From: a virus
Taxonomy: Duplodnaviria > Heunggongvirae > Uroviricota > Caudoviricetes
IMG/VR virus record: IMGVR_UViG_648276669_000001
Reading direction: 5' to 3' (one strand)
DNA: 28,353 bases
Each line of letters begins with the position of its first letter. Position 1 is the stretch's first letter. Below are positions 1,538 to 8,917 of the stretch, piece by piece. The notes beneath the pieces are model-generated. The model did no database searches. It saw only the letters and a list, made by a program, of their open reading frames with translations, and was not told where the DNA came from. Made by a program: the position numbers and the translations under genes.

Positions 1538-4279
1538 TTAATTTGCAAGCTTATTTTCCAGTTCTTCAATCCTCTTTATAATATTTTTCTGACGTATACC
1601 TAATGCAGCAATCATTAGATACTGTAATTCATCATTTCTGAATGCATAGCGTTCTCCTGCTTCATGCGTAATAGTTATAGCCTCACGAACAAGGTTACCT
1701 TCATCATCATAAACAGCTGGATCTGTATCTGTATATGCATCCCATCTGTCATAGCAGATCGCTCCGTATTTAAATGGATCAAGTCCATTCTCTCTGAATA
1801 TTTCCATTGCCCGTTGCACCGTAAGTCCGGCATGAAGTCTGGCATCAGCTCCCTTATTTTTTACACTATCAAGCCATTGATAAAAACCAATTTCATCAAC
1901 AAGAGCTAACCCAACCGCCTGCTCTTTATCGGAAAGAGTTCTGACTTCCGTTTTCTCTGTTGCATCAGATGTATTTATAGTTGCAGTCCCTGCGTAGACC
2001 TGAGAAAAGCGGTTAACGGACCTTCCAAGTGATACCTGGTTATCAGTTGTTGGCCTTAATGTCGTCGTCGCCCATGTCGATGTAGTATCTTTAGTCGCAG
2101 AAAATACTGTTACATTCCCCTGCTTAAGTCTGACGACACCTCCATCTGTAGAGGCAAGTATCAACTCACCAGCCGCAGATGGACAATCAGCAGCATGGAT
2201 ATCAATATAAGCACCACCCGCAGTATTCCCATCTTTAGAACGGAACTGCATACCTCGAAAGTTTGAGTCGAATACTGCTTTCGTACTTACCCATGAATTA
2301 TTGTCATGTCCGTAATCTGTATCAAACAGGTTAAGGTTATTTCCATAATTCAACTCGAGGGATTTGGTATACTCTCCAATGGCTTCGTCAAATATCGCAA
2401 TAGTAAATGAACCGTGCTCACGGTTAAAGGCGATATCAGTTCCAGCATAATATTGATGCGCGGTTCCGGTATACGGATCGGATTCTGCACCATGCACTGG
2501 ATGGTTGCCAAGAATATCAGACAGGTTTGCTATTCCAAACAGATGCTTATTTCTGCGAGTATAATCACCTGATTTATATGTTGCGCCTGAATCCCATTCA
2601 CCACTTGTCGCTGCAAGCGATGTTTTTAACCAATAAGACCTGTTTGTCGGAAGATTTCCCTTGTTATCACCAGTAACAATACTTACCCAATTTTTACCAC
2701 GATGGCTTACAACATCCCCTGCGCTTTTCCATACATCCATAGCACCACAGACAAGTTCATCACCTCTTATTGCCAGCCCTTCAGGCTCAAAGCTAACCGG
2801 AACTCCGATTTTAGAGTCAGAACCATTTAACTGAGTCTCTGTATAAAGTGATGCGGCAAGTGATACAGGAAATGAACGTATTAGCGTACCACCCATATCA
2901 TAAATCTGTACTGTCCTTACGCATCTTGCAGGAACGCCACCCCAAATTGTGTAAATATATCTGCTATCTGATGTAATACCCTGAAGTGTTGCACCATACT
3001 GACCTTTACCACGGACAAGTGGAACAGGACCATTAATCGGTCTAACTTTCATTGGGTTAGAAGAAGATTCCACTTCTTTGCGATCATATACGTATAAAAA
3101 GCGGCCAGTCCCAGCGTTTGATGTCGCAATTAATATGACATATCGCCCATCATTAGATACACAAATACTTGCCCGCTGCGCAAGGTTAATCAGATTATTA
3201 TCACCCGGCTCACCAAATACTCGGTAATGAGTTATATCTTCAGCAGATGTTGATGCCCCTTTCCATTTTGTCTTTGAATACCCCTTCCCTCCTAGAGAGG
3301 AACCAGTCTCAGCAATTGTTGTTGTAAACAGATATAGTTCACCGTTCTCTATTGTGGCAGAAAGATCTGAACCGTGACCAAGAGGCAATGGCTCTGTAAA
3401 TGTCACAACATAAAGAGTTGAACCATCGCTTGTATAGTGCCACTCACTGATCCTTGTGAGGGTGTCCGTTCCCCAGTTAGAACCTCCAACCTGTTGAGTG
3501 ATAAAAACCTTCTCAATACCTTCATGCCTTACACAAGCTATTCCCTGCAATGCATTTTGTGCATTCGCATATATAGTTGGCGCATTGATATCATCACCAA
3601 AATTCAGGGTCGCAAGTTTTCTTTGTCCAATGGAGAAACTTTGCATCGGCGGATTAACAGAAATGCGAACACCATTACTGATTAGAACACCATCACCGGA
3701 GAAGCGTGAAATATCTATTTTCGATGCATCAACTATAAACTCACCAGAAGGCACATGAACCAAACCACTATTTCCTGCGCTAGATGCGGCGTCAAGAAAA
3801 GCCTGTGTTGAATCTCTATTCGCAGAGTCATCCGCCCCCCACCCGCGAACGTCTTTATCATCCCGCCATCGTGCAATCTGTAATTCAGGGTATTTTTTAG
3901 CACCATCAGGATCTTCTAATTGCTGCCGTAACTGATCCGGGTCATACTTCAGCACATTCGGAAAATAGAACTGCTGCGTACCATAAGCATCGTACACAGC
4001 CATAGAGTGTCCTTTCACAGTAACGAATTTGGCAATCTGTCCGTTATATACAGGATATCCAGCAGCATTGATAACGATTGGTTGCGAAACAGGAACGTGA
4101 GAACCTTCTTCATTCTCTACATAAACCTGAATCTGGTTTTCAGGATTTACAGGGTCAGTGTCAATTTTACCGATATAAATTTTGCCATTAGCTACGGCTT
4201 TAAAAGAACGAGCCATAGTGAAGAGTTGCGAAGGCATCCCAATTACAACATTTGGAGTTATATCAGGCATATTAGTCAT
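1538..4279 (-). CDS. Tailspike protein: P22 gp9-type N-terminal head-binding domain fused to a non-P22 receptor-binding/enzymatic domain and a C-terminal intramolecular-chaperone-like domain
   Basis: Residues [62 protein letters not shown]...[31 protein letters not shown] match the P22 tailspike head-binding domain from memory. The rest is unrelated to the P22 endorhamnosidase; the C-terminus ([36 protein letters not shown]...) resembles the autoproteolytic chaperone domain of endosialidase/tail-fibre proteins. Start set at the internal ATG (4279) because the 48-codon upstream extension is AT-rich and has no counterpart in P22 gp9. Confidence 0.85.
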
Positions 4280-5551: not shown

Positions 5552-5620
5552 GTTGGTTTTTCTCCACGGATTTACTGACAACCGAAGCCCTGACTGTTCC
5601 CGCAGTTGGGGCTTCAACTT
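5552..5620 (+). ncRNA. sar: Candidate sar antisense RNA (about 68 nt, antisense to the arc-ant intercistronic region and ant RBS)
   Basis: P22 is known to make a 68-69 nt antisense RNA here. Sequence shows a plus-strand promoter-like pair TGTTCA(5517-5522)-17 bp-TATACT(5540-5545) and a hairpin GAAGCCC...GGGGCTTC near 5580-5615. Confidence 0.45.
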
Positions 5621-5844: not shown

Positions 5845-5871
5845 GTCAATACACTAACTTGGAGTGATGGC

Positions 5872-6144
5872 ATGGCTAGAGATGATCCGCACTTTAACTT
5901 CCGTATGCCTATGGAAGTAAGGGAGAAATTAAAATTCAGGGCGGAGGCGAATGGGAGATCAATGAACTCCGAGTTGTTACAAATCGTCCAAGATGCTCTA
6001 TCAAAACCATCGCCTGTGACTGGATATCGCGACGATGCAGAACGACTCGCTGATGAGCAGTCAGAGCTTGTTAAGAAGATGGTGTTTGATACGCTGAAGG
6101 ATTTGTACAAAAAAACCCACCTGAAGGTGGGTCCTATTTATTAG
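5872..6144 (+). CDS. mnt: Mnt repressor (maintenance of lysogeny), with a C-terminal tail that differs from the P22 ending I recall
   Basis: Translation MARDDPHFNFRMPMEVREKLKFRAEANGRSMNSELLQIVQDALSKPSPVTGYRDDAERLADEQSELVKKMVFDTLKDLYKK... matches P22 Mnt from memory; GGAG RBS at 5861-5864. Confidence 0.95.
   Translation: MARDDPHFNFRMPMEVREKLKFRAEANGRSMNSELLQIVQDALSKPSPVTGYRDDAERLADEQSELVKKMVFDTLKDLYKKTHLKVGPIY
6108..6133 (-). terminator. Rho-independent terminator for the minus-strand lipoprotein gene (hairpin ACCCACC-TGAA-GGTGGGT plus T-run); overlaps the 3' coding end of mnt
   Basis: Seen in sequence: aaaaaacccacctgaaggtgggt. Confidence 0.6.
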
Positions 6145-6560
6145 TCTTGCTTTGTTGATGGTATAAGAGATGCGTTTGCCTCTTTTGGCTTCAAGGTATA
6201 CATCCCACCATTAAAAGGATCTACAGCAAGCCAACCAATTAACCCACCAAACACAAGGTTTCCACCAATATACCAGCCATTAGCATTGGCTTTGATTGGC
6301 AGGGTAACTGGTTCGTACCCATCCTTTTCCATAGTGATCTGGTAGCTCTTTTTGCCAAAATAACTACCATCTGACTTGGCAAGAGTTACTCCTTGTGGGG
6401 TCTTACCTTGCGCAACAATCACGCCTGATTCGTCTTTTACCTTAAAGCTCGCACCGGAAGGATTGCTGTTCACTTGCACAAGCTGCGTTTCGTCACCAAC
6501 AATAGTTGCGCACCCAGATAACAATATAGCGCCAGCAACGACGCCAATAATCCTCTTCAT
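6141..6560 (-). CDS. Putative lipoprotein (signal peptide with lipobox LLSGC); moron in the sieA-equivalent position
   Basis: Translation from ATG 6560: MKRIIGVVAGAILLSGCATIVGDETQ...; Gly-rich C-terminal motif GGNLVFGGLIGWLAVDPFNGG. No homolog confidently recognised. Confidence 0.7.
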   Translation of the reverse strand: MKRIIGVVAGAILLSGCATIVGDETQLVQVNSNPSGASFKVKDESGVIVAQGKTPQGVTLAKSDGSYFGKKSYQITMEKDGYEPVTLPIKANANGWYIGGNLVFGGLIGWLAVDPFNGGMYTLKPKEANASLIPSTKQD

Positions 6561-6676
6561 ATCAATTTCCATATTTAAAAAACCGGAAACATCCTAATGA
6601 CAAACCATTCAAATGTGAAGTAGGCAAAAGATGTTTACTTTTTCATGGTATCCTGCTCAAAACTAAGGAGGTTGGC

Positions 6677-7066
6677 GTGAAGCAATTTCTTACTGCTATG
6701 TTCTTATTCATATCTTTTGGGGCTACAGCAGAGTGCTGGGTCGTTGGAGATATGCGCGGAATAAGCTATTCAGAACGAAATAATTTCCACCCGGAAGAAG
6801 ATGGTTTTAGTGGAACATTCATCATTAAGACAAACGGTGAAGATGCCAGCATCACATATTCTGGGACAGATGCGGGCGGCATGGCTTACAAAGCATTGTC
6901 TAAAAACTCCATCATAGGAATCGGCGCGAATGGCGAAACTCAACGCGTTATCGACTCATGGGTAATACATCCTACTGGAACAGTTTTAATGTCAAAAACC
7001 ATTTCCGGTTATGGAAATATGGATTCAACCAAAGCTTTTGTTGGAAAAGTAAAAAGAAAATGTTAG
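6677..7066 (+). CDS. Small exported protein of unknown function (N-terminal signal peptide, GTG start)
   Basis: Strong RBS AAGGAGG 6 nt upstream of GTG; N-terminus MKQFLTAMFLFISFGATAEC looks like a Sec signal peptide; divergent from the lipoprotein gene. Confidence 0.65.
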   Translation: MKQFLTAMFLFISFGATAECWVVGDMRGISYSERNNFHPEEDGFSGTFIIKTNGEDASITYSGTDAGGMAYKALSKNSIIGIGANGETQRVIDSWVIHPTGTVLMSKTISGYGNMDSTKAFVGKVKRKC

Positions 7067-7090
7067 CGATTGAATCCAATTTCCCATACG

Positions 7091-8917
7091 TTACTGCTGT
7101 GTTGCCTCAGTAGCAAACAGCGGTCTGATGGCATTCGCAGCGTTATTTATCGCTCTTTCATAGGCTGGTGTTCCTGCTTTGGTGTTTGCCAAACGAAGAA
7201 GCATATTTCTTGCTGCTTTGGACTCATACAAGCGCATCATTGCACCAAAACCAGCCTCAAGCCCCATTGATACGCCAAGGGTCGCAGTTGCGCCAATCGT
7301 CCTTATCCTGTTGGCTTGCGATTGCCCCGTCTGAGTTACTACATTTGCGGTGTCTGACCTTGCTGTTTGCTGTAGAACTTCATGAAGAGCATCAAGCTCT
7401 TTCATGTGCTTTCCAGAAAAAATAGTGTTGTAAATTTCACCGCCTGACTGAGATTTCAGCTTATTAACTTCAGTGATGAACTTGGCTGGAGAGTCCCCGG
7501 CCTTTTCCGCTATTTTGCTGACGTAAGCTGCACGCATAGCATCTTTCCCCTTATCATCCAGTGCGCTCCAGATTCGTTTCACGTCAGATGGTTTTCTGCT
7601 TAATACAACGGTATTTATAAGTTCAGGACTGGCTTCGCTGCTTGCCTTGTTGAGCTTGTTGGCAATGTTTTTATTAAGCACCTTATTATAAACGTTTGCA
7701 TAATCGGAATTTGCTTTAAGGTATTTTGCTGCGTCTGATGCACCGAGGTTTTTAGCAACTGCGTTACGAAGGTCTTTTGACATTGCATTCTCTACCATAT
7801 TGGTAGCTGCTTTTGCCTGGTTGGGGAAGACCATAGCATCTCCCTGAACATTAGATCTAAATGCTGTTCTGTGCTGACGCAAGAGATCAAACGTAACATC
7901 CAAATCAGTTGCAGGGTTTGCTAATTCTTCACGTAGGTTACGCAAGGATGTAAGCAGGCTTTGATTGGCAGACGTCCCAAGCCGTTCCTGTCTTGCGATC
8001 GCTGTATTCAGAGCATTCATGGTATTTGTGGTATCAACTGCGGCATTACCCATTTTATTGGTGACGTCATTGATAACAGCGCCAGCGGCATCCTTCCGCC
8101 CCCTTAACGTGGTGGTAAGAGATTTCACCACATCATCAGGGTTGTACTCACCAAAACGGTCAAAATAATTGCTTACCAGCTTACTACGCGTTGCATATTG
8201 CTCCGCTCGCTTTGAGCCTGTCCCGAGCAAAGCCCCCTCAGCATCCTGAGTAAGTCCGCGAGTGAAAGCATTTTTCGGCGGGATAACATCAGATGTCATT
8301 GGTGTCACGCCCATCGATTCTGATGTGGCAATTTTCTTCGCCACTTCTGGCGCAATATCACCTTTTATAGCCGTTATTCCACGCCCTATTCCCTTTGCTG
8401 CTGCGGAAAGAACACCCTGAGCGGCAAGGTTAACTCCGGCATTTTTAGCTGCATTTTGTGCGAAATCACCTTTCTGATTTGCGGCCTCTGCCAGTGATCC
8501 AATAGCCATACTTCCTGCCGTTCCAACTCCTGGAACTAAATACCCGCCAATTGTTTCTCCAGCTTGAGCGTAGGAGTCTGTCGGTCTGTCTACTGGACGA
8601 TAGACATCATCCAATACTTTTGGCCCACCAAGCCCCTGACTGATTGCATTAATCAGACTTGCGCCACCCTGCAATACGTCAAATGGTATGTTTACCAGAC
8701 CACGACCAGCCTGTTCTGCAATTTGCCCTGCACTTTGACCACCAGTGAGCCAGTCAGTAGCTTTTCCTACCAGAGATTGTTCTTCTGGCTGCGATTGGTT
8801 TTGGGTGGATTGATCACCAGAAGACAGCATCTGAGCAATGCGACGTGCTCCCTCAGTATCACCAGCAGCATCAGCATTCCTTAACGCCGTCATCAATTGT
8901 TCACGACTATAAGCCAT
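7091..8917 (-). CDS. Ejection (injection) protein, P22 gp16 homolog
   Basis: 608 aa ORF in the P22 gene 16 position and size, Ala/Gly-rich; stop overlaps the upstream gene. Confidence 0.85.

Follow-up and report, generated by a model that had tools for sequence, protein, structure and literature searches.

The segment between mnt and the gene for the gene-16 ejection protein of a P22-like (Lederbergvirus) E. coli prophage holds two small genes, one for a 139-aa lipoprotein on the - strand and one for a 129-aa exported protein on the + strand, at positions 6141-7066 of the 28,353-nucleotide stretch of DNA that we analysed (the window). Sequence comparison identifies the exported protein as a full-length homologue of Hex ("heterologous exclusion") of phage 434, and its gene opens with the same leader and start codon as the superinfection-exclusion gene sieA of P22. 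On balance, we lean toward the view that the segment carries two independent accessory morons: a Hex-family periplasmic excluder that would have replaced the sieA open reading frame (ORF), and a solitary, envelope-converting outer-membrane lipoprotein. Both are probably accessory genes of the prophage whose products act at the cell envelope, most plausibly against other phages. For the Hex-like protein, its homology makes a part in exclusion plausible; for the lipoprotein, such a part is speculative. The features of the segment and its flanks are as follows:

5872..6144, + strand: mnt, the immunity I repressor gene (flank)
6107..6139, both strands: bidirectional intrinsic terminator hairpin (stem-loop 6116-6131), common to the convergent mnt and lipoprotein genes
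6141..6560, - strand: lipoprotein gene, 139 aa, PHROG 6823 (ORF 6141..6572, ATG at 6560)
6198..6278, - strand: invariant Gly-zipper hydrophobic segment GWYIGGNLVFGGLIGWLAVDPFNGGMY, residues 95-121, from alignment columns
6282..6488, - strand: transthyretin/PEGA-like beta-sandwich, residues 25-93
6510..6560, - strand: signal peptide and lipobox, MKRIIGVVAGAILLSG/C, with the Cys17 codon at 6510-6512
6573..6676, no strand: divergent intergenic region, 104 bp
6642-6676: conserved leader CATGGTATCCTGCTCAAAACTAAGGAGGTTGG, from alignment and pattern search
6677..7066, + strand: gene for the Hex-family exported protein, 129 aa, GTG start, PHROG 2651, from the ORF and the PHROG match
6677..6730, + strand: predicted Sec signal peptide, MKQFLTAMFLFISFGATA/EC, from family-wide statistics
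6734..6736, + strand: codon of the invariant Cys20, whose presumed disulfide partner Cys129 is encoded at 7061-7063
7091..8917, - strand: P22 gene-16-type DNA ejection protein gene (flank), convergent with the Hex-like gene

A sequence-only reading of this DNA had placed both ORFs correctly; they lie at 6141..6572 on the - strand and, with a GTG start, at 6677..7066 on the + strand. The P22 gene order agrees with its statement that P22 carries sieA between gene 16 and mnt. The mnt/gene-16 interval lies in the hypervariable "ant moron" of P22-like phages (PMC2629481), and sieA is present in only 22 of 66 sequenced P22-like phages (PMC10883804). We found that the cargo between gene 16 and mnt differs between P22, epsilon34, Emek and the E. 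coli prophages. Occupants of the region in other phages include SieA, a Panacea-domain pair, a ClpP-like gene and a P63C-domain gene. The presence of the two genes thus varies among related phages whose surrounding gene order is conserved, which is one mark of a moron in the Hendrix/Juhala sense. As for the flanks, the gene 16 product is named 'P22-gp16 family phage DNA ejection protein' by PGAP in near-identical E. coli prophages, and Mnt has 90 aa here instead of 83, owing to one additional A in the run of A at 6109-6115. The only Rfam match was the sar RNA (5552-5619), which lies outside the two-gene segment.

The same leader followed by GTG opens P22 sieA, epsilon34 gene 14, Emek orf129 and the Hex-like ORF, and the conserved leader with the start codon reads AAAACTAAGGAGGTTGG(T/C)GTG. 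Since P22 sieA and the Hex-like gene start at one and the same GTG, preceded by a common leader, the ORF was swapped at the start codon. In this sense, the Hex-like frame displaced that of sieA exactly at this codon and retained the sieA leader and its Shine-Dalgarno sequence. The stretch in common with the DNA upstream of P22 sieA is only ~35-50 bp long, and a stump of three codons from the start of P22 hkcC lies in the intergenic region. The suggestion that the segment occupies the sieA slot can thus be upheld at nucleotide resolution for the + strand gene, which lies, as sieA genes do, between homologues of genes 16 and 9 in a P22-like prophage. The strong ribosome-binding site and GTG start that had been proposed are also in place, with an AAGGAGG Shine-Dalgarno sequence 6 nt 5' of the GTG and family alignments that open at the GTG residue. 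A scan of the 104-bp intergenic region for sigma-70 promoters gave nothing convincing, and a weak site (9/12, - strand, 6619..6591) scored no more than shuffled sequences do. In P22, a putative PsieA lies no more than 85 bp from the start codon, on a fragment that confers exclusion from a chromosomal copy (PMC10883804).

The likeness to P22 SieA extends to position, orientation, leader, Shine-Dalgarno sequence, GTG start, envelope location and the status of accessory gene of P22-like prophages, but not to the amino acid sequence. In BLASTP searches against P22 SieA, the exported protein gave an E value of 0.99 and the lipoprotein one of 0.037 over 31 residues only, which agrees with the earlier remark that neither resembles SieA. 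Nor does either protein show the similarity that marks SieA types A-C, including the FxRYPxEAxxFNK motif. [quoted passage not shown]

The sequence-only reading had been unable to assign either protein to a described family. This does not stand for the exported protein, which belongs to the Hex family; the lipoprotein is epsilon34 gp15 (PHROG 6823). The exported protein matches PHROG 2651 (E 3e-61), for which there is no Pfam model, and is 96.9% identical to Emek orf129. Its alignment with 434 Hex covers the full length at only 27% identity by BLASTP (E 3e-12), likewise 27% over 100% of the query by tblastn, and hhalign relates the two at 99.8% (E 3e-30). Epsilon34 gp14 and HK620 HkcB were also considered as kin of the Hex-like protein and were rejected at an hhalign probability of 0.1%. 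Clustering at 50% identity divides the family into at least 89 groups, and Cys20, W95, G123 and Cys129 are conserved in it, which indicates that the ORF is a real gene. Among 82 aligned members, the N-terminus carries a hydrophobic core in all 82, a basic n-region in 81 and A, S, G or T at position -1 in 78. Cys20 is invariant in this set and Cys129 is found in 81 of the 82, every member having two or four cysteines. The homology and structure-prediction check that had been recommended for the exported protein returned, in addition to 434 Hex, a confident AlphaFold2 model (pLDDT 93.3) of a small beta-barrel with 8-9 strands. Cys20 lies in the first strand of this barrel and Cys129 in the last, and a disulfide between them probably closes it. 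The Hex-like protein would therefore be predicted to leave the cytoplasm through the Sec pathway as a soluble barrel, and the export signals of both products support the earlier notion that they are envelope proteins.

The Hex-like protein and 434 Hex also share a length of ~130 aa, the signal peptide, the positions of the N- and C-terminal cysteines, W95 and G123, and both are carried by temperate lambdoid or P22-like phages at a locus where activity in the lysogen is expected. Their genes differ in location, the Hex-like gene occupying the ant moron/sieA slot, where the sieA leader precedes it, and 434 hex lying downstream of cI, with which it is co-transcribed from PRM (PMC3564112). Family members were found downstream of cI in 434, Sf6 (gp38), HK446, HK633 and Sf101, and matches in Huey and Chlobot look alike. 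Another lies next to RexA/RexB within the tail cluster of a siphovirus, as a moron on the opposite strand, and further members reside in non-phage islands and in an integron-like array. According to PMC3564112, which relates it second-hand and gives no data, Hex is needed for the exclusion of P22 by lambda-imm434 lysogens; we found no mention of Hex in a recent exclusion review. Together with the homology, this reported exclusion of P22 gives a homology-based footing to the idea that the Hex-like protein is an excluder. Its 3' neighbour is the convergent gene 16. Since the Hex-like gene runs counter to the late operon, expression in the prophage state is most likely, as with sieA. The protein might then act in the periplasm against superinfecting phages, possibly at the ejection-protein or DNA-delivery step of incoming P22-like phages.

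The lipoprotein matches PHROG 6823 with an E value of 6e-86 and has 728 homologues in our searches. It is 100% identical to a protein of phage Gally and 97.8% identical to epsilon34 gp15; translation from another upstream ATG, at 6572, would give 143 aa. The LLSGC lipobox that had been noticed is present, and a lipobox-like motif followed by Ala at +2 recurs in 38 of 38 aligned homologues. Sorting to the outer membrane is expected because the +2 residue is Ala. The following domain is a transthyretin-like beta-sandwich, a generic fold; the PEGA domain (PF08308) scores 17.6 bits, under the Pfam gathering threshold of 20.8, and reaches E < 0.01 in 4 of the 38 homologues. The Gly-zipper-like C-terminus of the earlier reading corresponds to the Gly-rich hydrophobic segment, which is the most conserved part of the family, with invariant columns G95, W96, Y97, N101, G109, D114, P115, G118, G119, M120 and Y121; residues 95-112 are predicted, at low confidence, to form a helix. 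The terminator that had been attributed to the lipoprotein gene is likewise found there and is shared with mnt: a GC hairpin precedes a run of seven T on the - strand (the terminator scan lists the + strand only), and the same hairpin is annotated as rho-independent on the gene-15 strand in epsilon34.

Differences within the lipoprotein gene amount to 16-18 synonymous versus 2-3 non-synonymous changes, the latter all in the signal peptide (dN/dS 0.03-0.04). By this measure the lipoprotein is under strong purifying selection. The mature protein is identical between the E. coli prophage and Salmonella phage epsilon34, where gene 15 has the same place and orientation beside mnt and the same terminator. 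We found no substantive difference from epsilon34 gp15, which is the same gene in another phage. Its PGAP name is 'peptidase associated/transthyretin-like domain-containing protein', and it is already on record as a gene of unknown function (PMC2629481); our literature search found no paper on the PHROG 6823 lipoprotein family, and no relative of characterised function turned up. For both proteins, Pfam and NCBIfam scans returned no family above threshold, PADLOC-DB 2.0 gave no match, and profile searches of the two families against PDB sequences gave nothing meaningful. Foldseek against BFVD gave nothing at E <= 0.001. The PADLOC result says little, because SieA and Hex are also absent from that collection.

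Carriers of the lipoprotein family are prophages of E. coli, Proteus, Pseudescherichia and Arsenophonus, together with Salmonella phage epsilon34. In siphovirus prophages of E. coli and Proteus, homologues are inserted between the genes for the tail chaperone and the tape measure. Others separate tail genes I and J or follow an N-like gene in the immunity region of an Arsenophonus prophage. The first of these sites is the slot of HK97 gp15, a 62-aa superinfection-exclusion protein whose likeness to the lipoprotein homologues is positional only. We rejected the idea that the lipoprotein serves in lysis, as an o-spanin or otherwise, by position, since the gene lies outside the lysis cassette and recurs in tail clusters and one immunity region. 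Cor (phi80/N15) and Llp (T5) are likewise small phage-encoded accessory lipoproteins, and their receptor-masking logic would fit. They differ from the window lipoprotein, a sandwich plus Gly-zipper, in domain make-up, and the Cor models (NF047972 and PHROG 1119) found no match beyond its signal peptide (E 0.19 at 11.7 bits, with a cut-off of 31, and E 0.0034, over residues 1-20/30 only). Altogether, the lipoprotein would be an outer-membrane-sorted moron recurring at several hot spots of podo- and siphovirus prophages, and it may convert the envelope by blocking a receptor or entry route as Cor and Llp do. On contextual evidence and by analogy with these proteins, envelope conversion is its most likely role, although this is a weaker case than exclusion by the Hex-like protein.

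One or both genes could instead serve lysogenic conversion for host fitness rather than defence against phages, for example serum or complement resistance, tolerance of envelope stress, adhesion, or protection from bacteriocins or type VI effectors. There is precedent in Bor, an outer-membrane lipoprotein of the lambda prophage, and in surface proteins like Lom, which benefit the host in this way. Longer relatives of the lipoprotein do sit in an ordinary chromosomal context beside pepN, so that the ancestral function is bacterial, and the Hex-family members of non-phage islands and the integron-like array would also fit a role for the host. However, Pfam and NCBIfam gave no match to the Bor, Lom, TraT or lysozyme-inhibitor families. 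Moreover, the hosts of the lipoprotein homologues include gut commensals, insect symbionts and plant pathogens, life styles so different that a phage-directed role fits better than a host-niche role. Among relatives of the barrel protein, the only one characterised is an exclusion gene, and the slot's other cargo is SieA and toxin-antitoxin-like genes. We thus consider a host-fitness role rather unlikely.

The only published biochemistry of Hex suggests a cytoplasmic role, in which Hex blocks the RecA-stimulated cleavage of repressor (PMC3564112). In that study, a hex replacement mutant showed a 30-fold, recA-dependent rise in spontaneous induction, and the fragment sHex inhibited cleavage of the 434 and P22 repressors in vitro (PMC3564112). 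The phage of the window being P22-like, its Hex-like protein could act in the same manner. Nevertheless, the mutant was made by placing a cat cassette directly downstream of cI, and sHex was purified with guanidine and has neither the signal peptide nor the C-terminal third of the barrel. The N-terminus of this stable fragment, ECWIV, coincides exactly with the predicted signal-peptidase site, and export is nowhere considered in PMC3564112. The predicted mature N-terminus is E19 in the window protein and likewise E19 in the 134-aa form of 434 Hex. Also on the side of export, over-expression of full-length Hex was lethal. Signal-peptide-like N-termini in all 82 aligned members, and a pair of terminal cysteines typical of oxidised periplasmic proteins in 81 of them, are hard to reconcile with a cytoplasmic activity, which on this evidence is doubtful in vivo. 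In addition, the Hex-like gene of the window is not beside the repressor gene, and the family members in tail-cluster morons and in the integron-like array are far from repressors. Hence, the mechanism published for 434 Hex is improbable for the Hex-like protein.

The two proteins might also form one two-component system, such as an anchor with a periplasmic partner, given that their genes are adjacent and divergent and that both products are envelope proteins. The pair occurs in 43 complete E. coli genomes (those covering at least 80% of a query spanning 5850-7150), yet 124 and 147 of 5426 E. coli genomes carry the individual genes. E. coli O111:H- 11128 has a locus 99.5% identical to that of the window. 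The lipoprotein, but not the Hex-like protein, has matches in epsilon34, Gally and vB_EcoP-720R6, the neighbour of the lipoprotein gene in epsilon34 being gene 14, which is unrelated to the Hex-like gene. Conversely, the Hex-like gene has different partners in Emek, ST-35 and E. coli PK8241. Mosaic breakpoints separate the two genes, and in every other context that we examined, members of either family stand alone as inserts. This independent assortment led us to reject a two-gene system as very improbable. For the same reason, the term 'moron' that had been applied to the pair holds in that both genes behave as mobile accessory genes, but not in the sense of a single unit. That the ORFs are decaying or non-functional recombination remnants of a hypervariable region is hardly credible: the region is highly mosaic, keeps the hkcC stump and has a frameshifted 3' end of the Hex-like gene in ST-35, but the lipoprotein is strongly constrained, both proteins are conserved over their full length among hundreds of homologues, the barrel model is confident, and the two ORFs are intact in at least 123 and 146 complete E. 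coli genomes.

The reading of two independent morons can be extended to the whole families. The Hex family might consist of widespread, unrecognised soluble periplasmic beta-barrel excluders that are interchangeable with SieA at the start codon and halt the delivery of incoming phage genomes in the periplasm. The cytoplasmic RecA/repressor mechanism would then be an artefact of a truncated, unexported fragment, and PHROG 6823 would represent a second new excluder, a lipoprotein of broad distribution at the moron hot spots of podo- and siphovirus prophages. We put forward this broader proposal tentatively, as a rather unlikely conjecture.

In P22-like phages that do not carry sieA, the occupants of the sieA locus are largely unannotated, and one of them is a divergent Hex homologue behind the sieA leader. 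This finding links P22 sieA and 434 hex, two long-known but little-studied genes for exclusion, by way of a common cassette site. The export signals found across the Hex family call for a re-examination of the published Hex mechanism. Finally, the strong constraint on the lipoprotein family makes it a reasonable candidate for a new prophage function acting at the envelope.

Two ORFs occupy the interval between mnt and gene 16 in the window, and both are transcribed divergently from a 104-bp intergenic region. The features are as follows:

5552-5619, plus strand, sar antisense RNA (Rfam RF00262, 95.6 bits)
5872-6144, plus strand, mnt, flanking the 6141-7066 segment
6141-6560, minus strand, lipoprotein ORF of 139 aa (143 aa from an ATG further upstream at 6572)
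6677-7066, plus strand, Hex-like ORF of 129 aa with a GTG start and AAGGAGG ahead of it
7091-8917, minus strand, P22 gene-16-type ejection-protein gene, the other flank

The sar RNA, arc and ant adjoin the segment, in surroundings corresponding to a P22-like late region; together with mnt, they indicate that the immunity I region is complete. At 6116-6131, the sequence shows a GC hairpin with a T7 run after it on the minus strand. The terminator scan reported this hairpin on the plus strand only; in the epsilon34 record, the same hairpin is a rho-independent terminator assigned to the gene-15 strand. The sequence-only reading had described two divergent ORFs, a GTG start, a strong RBS and a lipoprotein terminator, and this description is accurate: the ORFs, the AAGGAGG and the hairpin were all found. 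Of note, the A-run ahead of the mnt/lipoprotein terminator (6109-6115) has seven A, compared with six in epsilon34 and E. coli A35. The extra A shifts the mnt frame, so that Mnt is 90 rather than 83 aa long and ends in ...KKTHLKVGPIY. Either a genuine mutation or a sequencing error in the homopolymer could account for the extra A. In addition, a 19-nt inverted repeat (7010-7028/7070-7088, 84% complementary, 41 nt apart) extends from the 3' end of the Hex-like gene across the 24 bp that separate it from the gene-16 stop; the two convergent genes may share it as a 3' hairpin, one lacking a T-run.

The same reading held that neither protein could be assigned to a described family. This fails for the exported protein, which BLASTP and hhalign place in the Hex family. 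It matches PHROG 2651, of unknown function (E 3e-61), and has no match in Pfam, NCBIfam or PADLOC. Identity reaches 96.9% with Emek orf129 and 96.1% with the ST-35 copy. Full-length identity is 27-28% with the product of the gene directly 3' of cI in 434, lambda imm434, Sf6 (gp38), HK446, HK633 and Sf101; the Huey and Chlobot matches appear alike. In 434 this gene is hex (BLASTP E 3e-12), and a profile of the 82-sequence family aligns with Hex from end to end (hhalign probability 99.8%, E 3e-30). An exhaustive phmmer search yielded 89 clusters at 50% identity, nearly all of 122-148 aa. On these comparisons, the Hex family gains a new, divergent member, and also a new genomic site, with the exported protein.

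Export signals pervade the 82 aligned Hex-family members. A hydrophobic core precedes an invariant Cys in all of them, with a basic n-region in 81 of 82. The cleavage site lies one residue before this Cys, with A/S/G/T at -1 in 78/82. A lipobox was rejected, the residue ahead of the Cys being E, S, N, D and similar. Another Cys is conserved at the C-terminal end (81/82), and every member has two or four. By these features, the Hex family is predicted to be exported. The AlphaFold2 model, built on the 82-member alignment, is confident (pLDDT 93.3, pTM 0.81) and shows a signal helix and then an up-and-down barrel of 8-9 strands. Cys20 lies on the first barrel strand and Cys129 on the last, and a disulfide between them presumably closes the barrel. 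Judging from sequence rather than from coordinates, we read it as a soluble periplasmic barrel and not an integral outer-membrane one, because it has short, charged strands, only ~110 residues in its mature part, no C-terminal aromatic signal and a conserved Cys pair. RefSeq/PGAP starts the gene at an internal ATG (Met8, 122 aa) in three loci (L021:7349-7717, L025:2522-2890 and L026:3059-3427), which cuts the signal peptide short. The 129-aa form is favoured because its Shine-Dalgarno and GTG are conserved and common with sieA. In ST-35 (L003 near 3690-3710), the last codons differ (...KENVS vs ...KRKC*) and the C-terminal Cys is lost, probably through a frameshift.

Hypervariability is already known for the interval between gene 16 and mnt. 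Villafane et al. (PMC2629481) named the stretch from gene 16 to the tailspike the "ant moron", distinguished ten types among sixteen genomes, and listed epsilon34 genes 14 and 15 as of unknown function. The P22 order is 16(-), sieA(+), orf59a(+), mnt(+), and sieA is present in only 22 of 66 P22-like phages (Leavitt et al., PMC10883804). We found one leader, CATGGTATCCTGC(A/T)CAAAACTAAGGAGGTTGG(T/C)GTG, ahead of P22 sieA, epsilon34 gene 14, Emek orf129 and the window ORF, whose coding sequences differ from the first codon past the GTG. Different envelope proteins have thus been swapped behind a single translation-initiation region. In the window, the epsilon34-like module stops at ~6679 and the Emek-like module starts at ~6646. 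By this alignment, the Hex-like ORF occupies the sieA slot at nucleotide resolution. The epsilon34 gene 14 product is unrelated to it; its first 14 codons are hydrophobic, and only weak coiled-coil-type matches were obtained. The opposite strand of the leader (6635-6646, minus) holds the start of a 121/125-aa ORF of P22 (L011:4317-4694, minus), presumably hkcC of PMC2629481, which contains HECAH and has no match in Pfam or PADLOC. The window retains only ATG AAA AAG TAA of it, a three-codon stump, so the minus-strand cargo was likewise exchanged right at a start codon. Among the other ant-moron cargo are, in Emek (L002:1790-2663), a toxin-antitoxin-like pair made up of a SocA/Panacea-domain protein and the 161-aa ORF behind it and, at L026:1908-2444, a gene for a ClpP-like protease located 3' of mnt.

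The lipoprotein and Hex-like genes are not a unit. The former is paired with gene 14 in epsilon34, and the latter with a Panacea-domain gene and a second ORF in Emek and with a P63C-domain gene in E. coli PK8241. Among 5426 complete E. coli genomes, 124 carry the lipoprotein gene, 147 the Hex-like gene, and 43, including O111:H- 11128, the whole arrangement.

The lipoprotein falls into PHROG 6823 (E 6e-86), a family already known from phages and bacteria but uncharacterised. Its identity is 97.8% with epsilon34 gp15, 100% with the phage Gally protein and 99.3% with that of vB_EcoP-720R6. A word-indexed search returned 728 homologues, mostly from Enterobacterales, with hosts including Phytobacter, Enterobacter, Rosenbergiella, Pectobacterium, Proteus, Xenorhabdus, Arsenophonus and Candidatus Fukatsuia. 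A lipobox-like motif with Ala at +2 is found in all 38 aligned homologues and predicts outer-membrane sorting under the +2 rule. CATIVG, just past the lipidated Cys, and the C-terminal NGWYIGGN..FGGLIGW..VDPFNGGMY are invariant or nearly so. In the AlphaFold2 model (pLDDT 77.6), residues 25-93 form a confident beta-sandwich, the Gly-zipper (95-112) a low-confidence helix, and 121-131 a hairpin. Pfam PEGA scored below threshold (17.6 vs 20.8 bits; E < 0.01 in 4/38 members), and Cor-model matches were limited to the signal peptide. Compared with the epsilon34 and E. coli UTME-3 copies, the gene shows 16-18 synonymous and 2-3 non-synonymous differences, the latter all in the signal peptide (dN/dS 0.03-0.04).

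One homologue from E. coli, 68% identical and present on 445 contigs, lies in a lambdoid siphovirus prophage, with tail chaperone genes G/T on one side and the tape-measure gene on the other. In HK97, this slot houses the gp15 "moron product". The Proteus homologue uses this slot in another prophage type, and the Pseudescherichia one lies between tail genes I and J, the site of HK97 morons gp22 and gp23. In Arsenophonus nasoniae (L022:5001-9044), a homologue is found in the immunity region of a prophage, behind an N-like gene. Beside it, a second immunity region has its own N-like gene, then a Ser/Thr kinase and a PP2C phosphatase; the kinase recalls that of 933W, a kinase that aborts infection by HK97 and shares its transcript with cI (PMC3564112). 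A longer relative (168 aa) adjoins pepN in a non-phage context. Together with the scattered phage slots, this chromosomal relative indicates that the family is a bacterial envelope lipoprotein repeatedly captured by phages as a solitary moron. In all phage contexts examined, the homologues are co-oriented with the surrounding operon, so the lipoprotein may also be transcribed during lytic growth.

The Hex-like ORF opposes the late operon, as sieA does, and this orientation supports a prophage-state gene. Its homologues in 434 and Sf6 sit within the PRM operon. Strong exclusion was obtained from sieA with 85 bp of upstream DNA containing a putative PsieA (Leavitt et al., PMC10883804), of which only ~35-50 bp are common to the window. 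A promoter scan of the plus strand ahead of the Hex-like gene gave nothing convincing, so its expression is inferred. A 34%-identical family member (L029:5001-6822, also L028) lies within a siphovirus tail cluster, on the opposite strand, where a DUF6246 gene and the tape-measure gene flank it; in one contig, it adjoins rexB and rexA. Another, 35% identical (L018:1-9411 and L019), belongs to an array of ~15 small co-directional ORFs spaced by ~75-140 bp gaps, which looks like a chromosomal integron cassette array. Further sites are a umuDC/SRAP island and an IS1-bearing region.

What our analysis shows directly is the identity of the two proteins, their export signals and class of fold, the junctions between cassettes, the distribution of the genes, and selective constraint. 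We propose that the lysogen would produce the Hex-like protein, which would be oxidised after secretion to the periplasm and would there stop superinfecting phages while they cross the envelope. Given the Hex homology, the exact replacement of sieA and the company of its relatives (cI, RexAB), we give this exclusion function roughly an even chance. The lipoprotein would be a periplasmic sandwich anchored in the outer membrane, with its Gly-zipper segment either membrane-inserted or oligomerising, and it might mask a receptor or entry route after the manner of Cor and Llp. This role, suggested only by context, is tentative, and the main rival is that the lipoprotein serves host fitness instead. 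The initial observation is confirmed and its interpretation, a candidate exclusion function, partly supported: Hex homology and sieA replacement speak for it in the case of the exported protein.

These results also bear on Hex of phage 434. Shkilnyj et al. (PMC3564112) reported that hex is co-transcribed with cI from PRM, and that lambda-imm434 lysogens of Salmonella, unlike hex- lysogens, exclude P22, a phenotype termed "heterologous exclusion". They also found that a Hex fragment blocks RecA-stimulated cleavage of the 434 and P22 repressors, and that over-expression of full-length, 158-aa Hex is lethal. This ORF (L004:1929-2405) starts upstream of an internal Sec-type signal peptide, MIRIAALLSILLTTSANS, followed by ECWIV. 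The "stable fragment" sHex begins with ECWIV, exactly at the predicted signal-peptidase site. That paper nowhere mentions signal, periplasm or membrane, and does not discuss export. The signal peptide, the sHex start and the lethality cast doubt on a cytoplasmic mode of action; exclusion in the periplasm would fit these features better. Thus, the cytoplasmic RecA/repressor mechanism proposed for 434 Hex may need re-examination.
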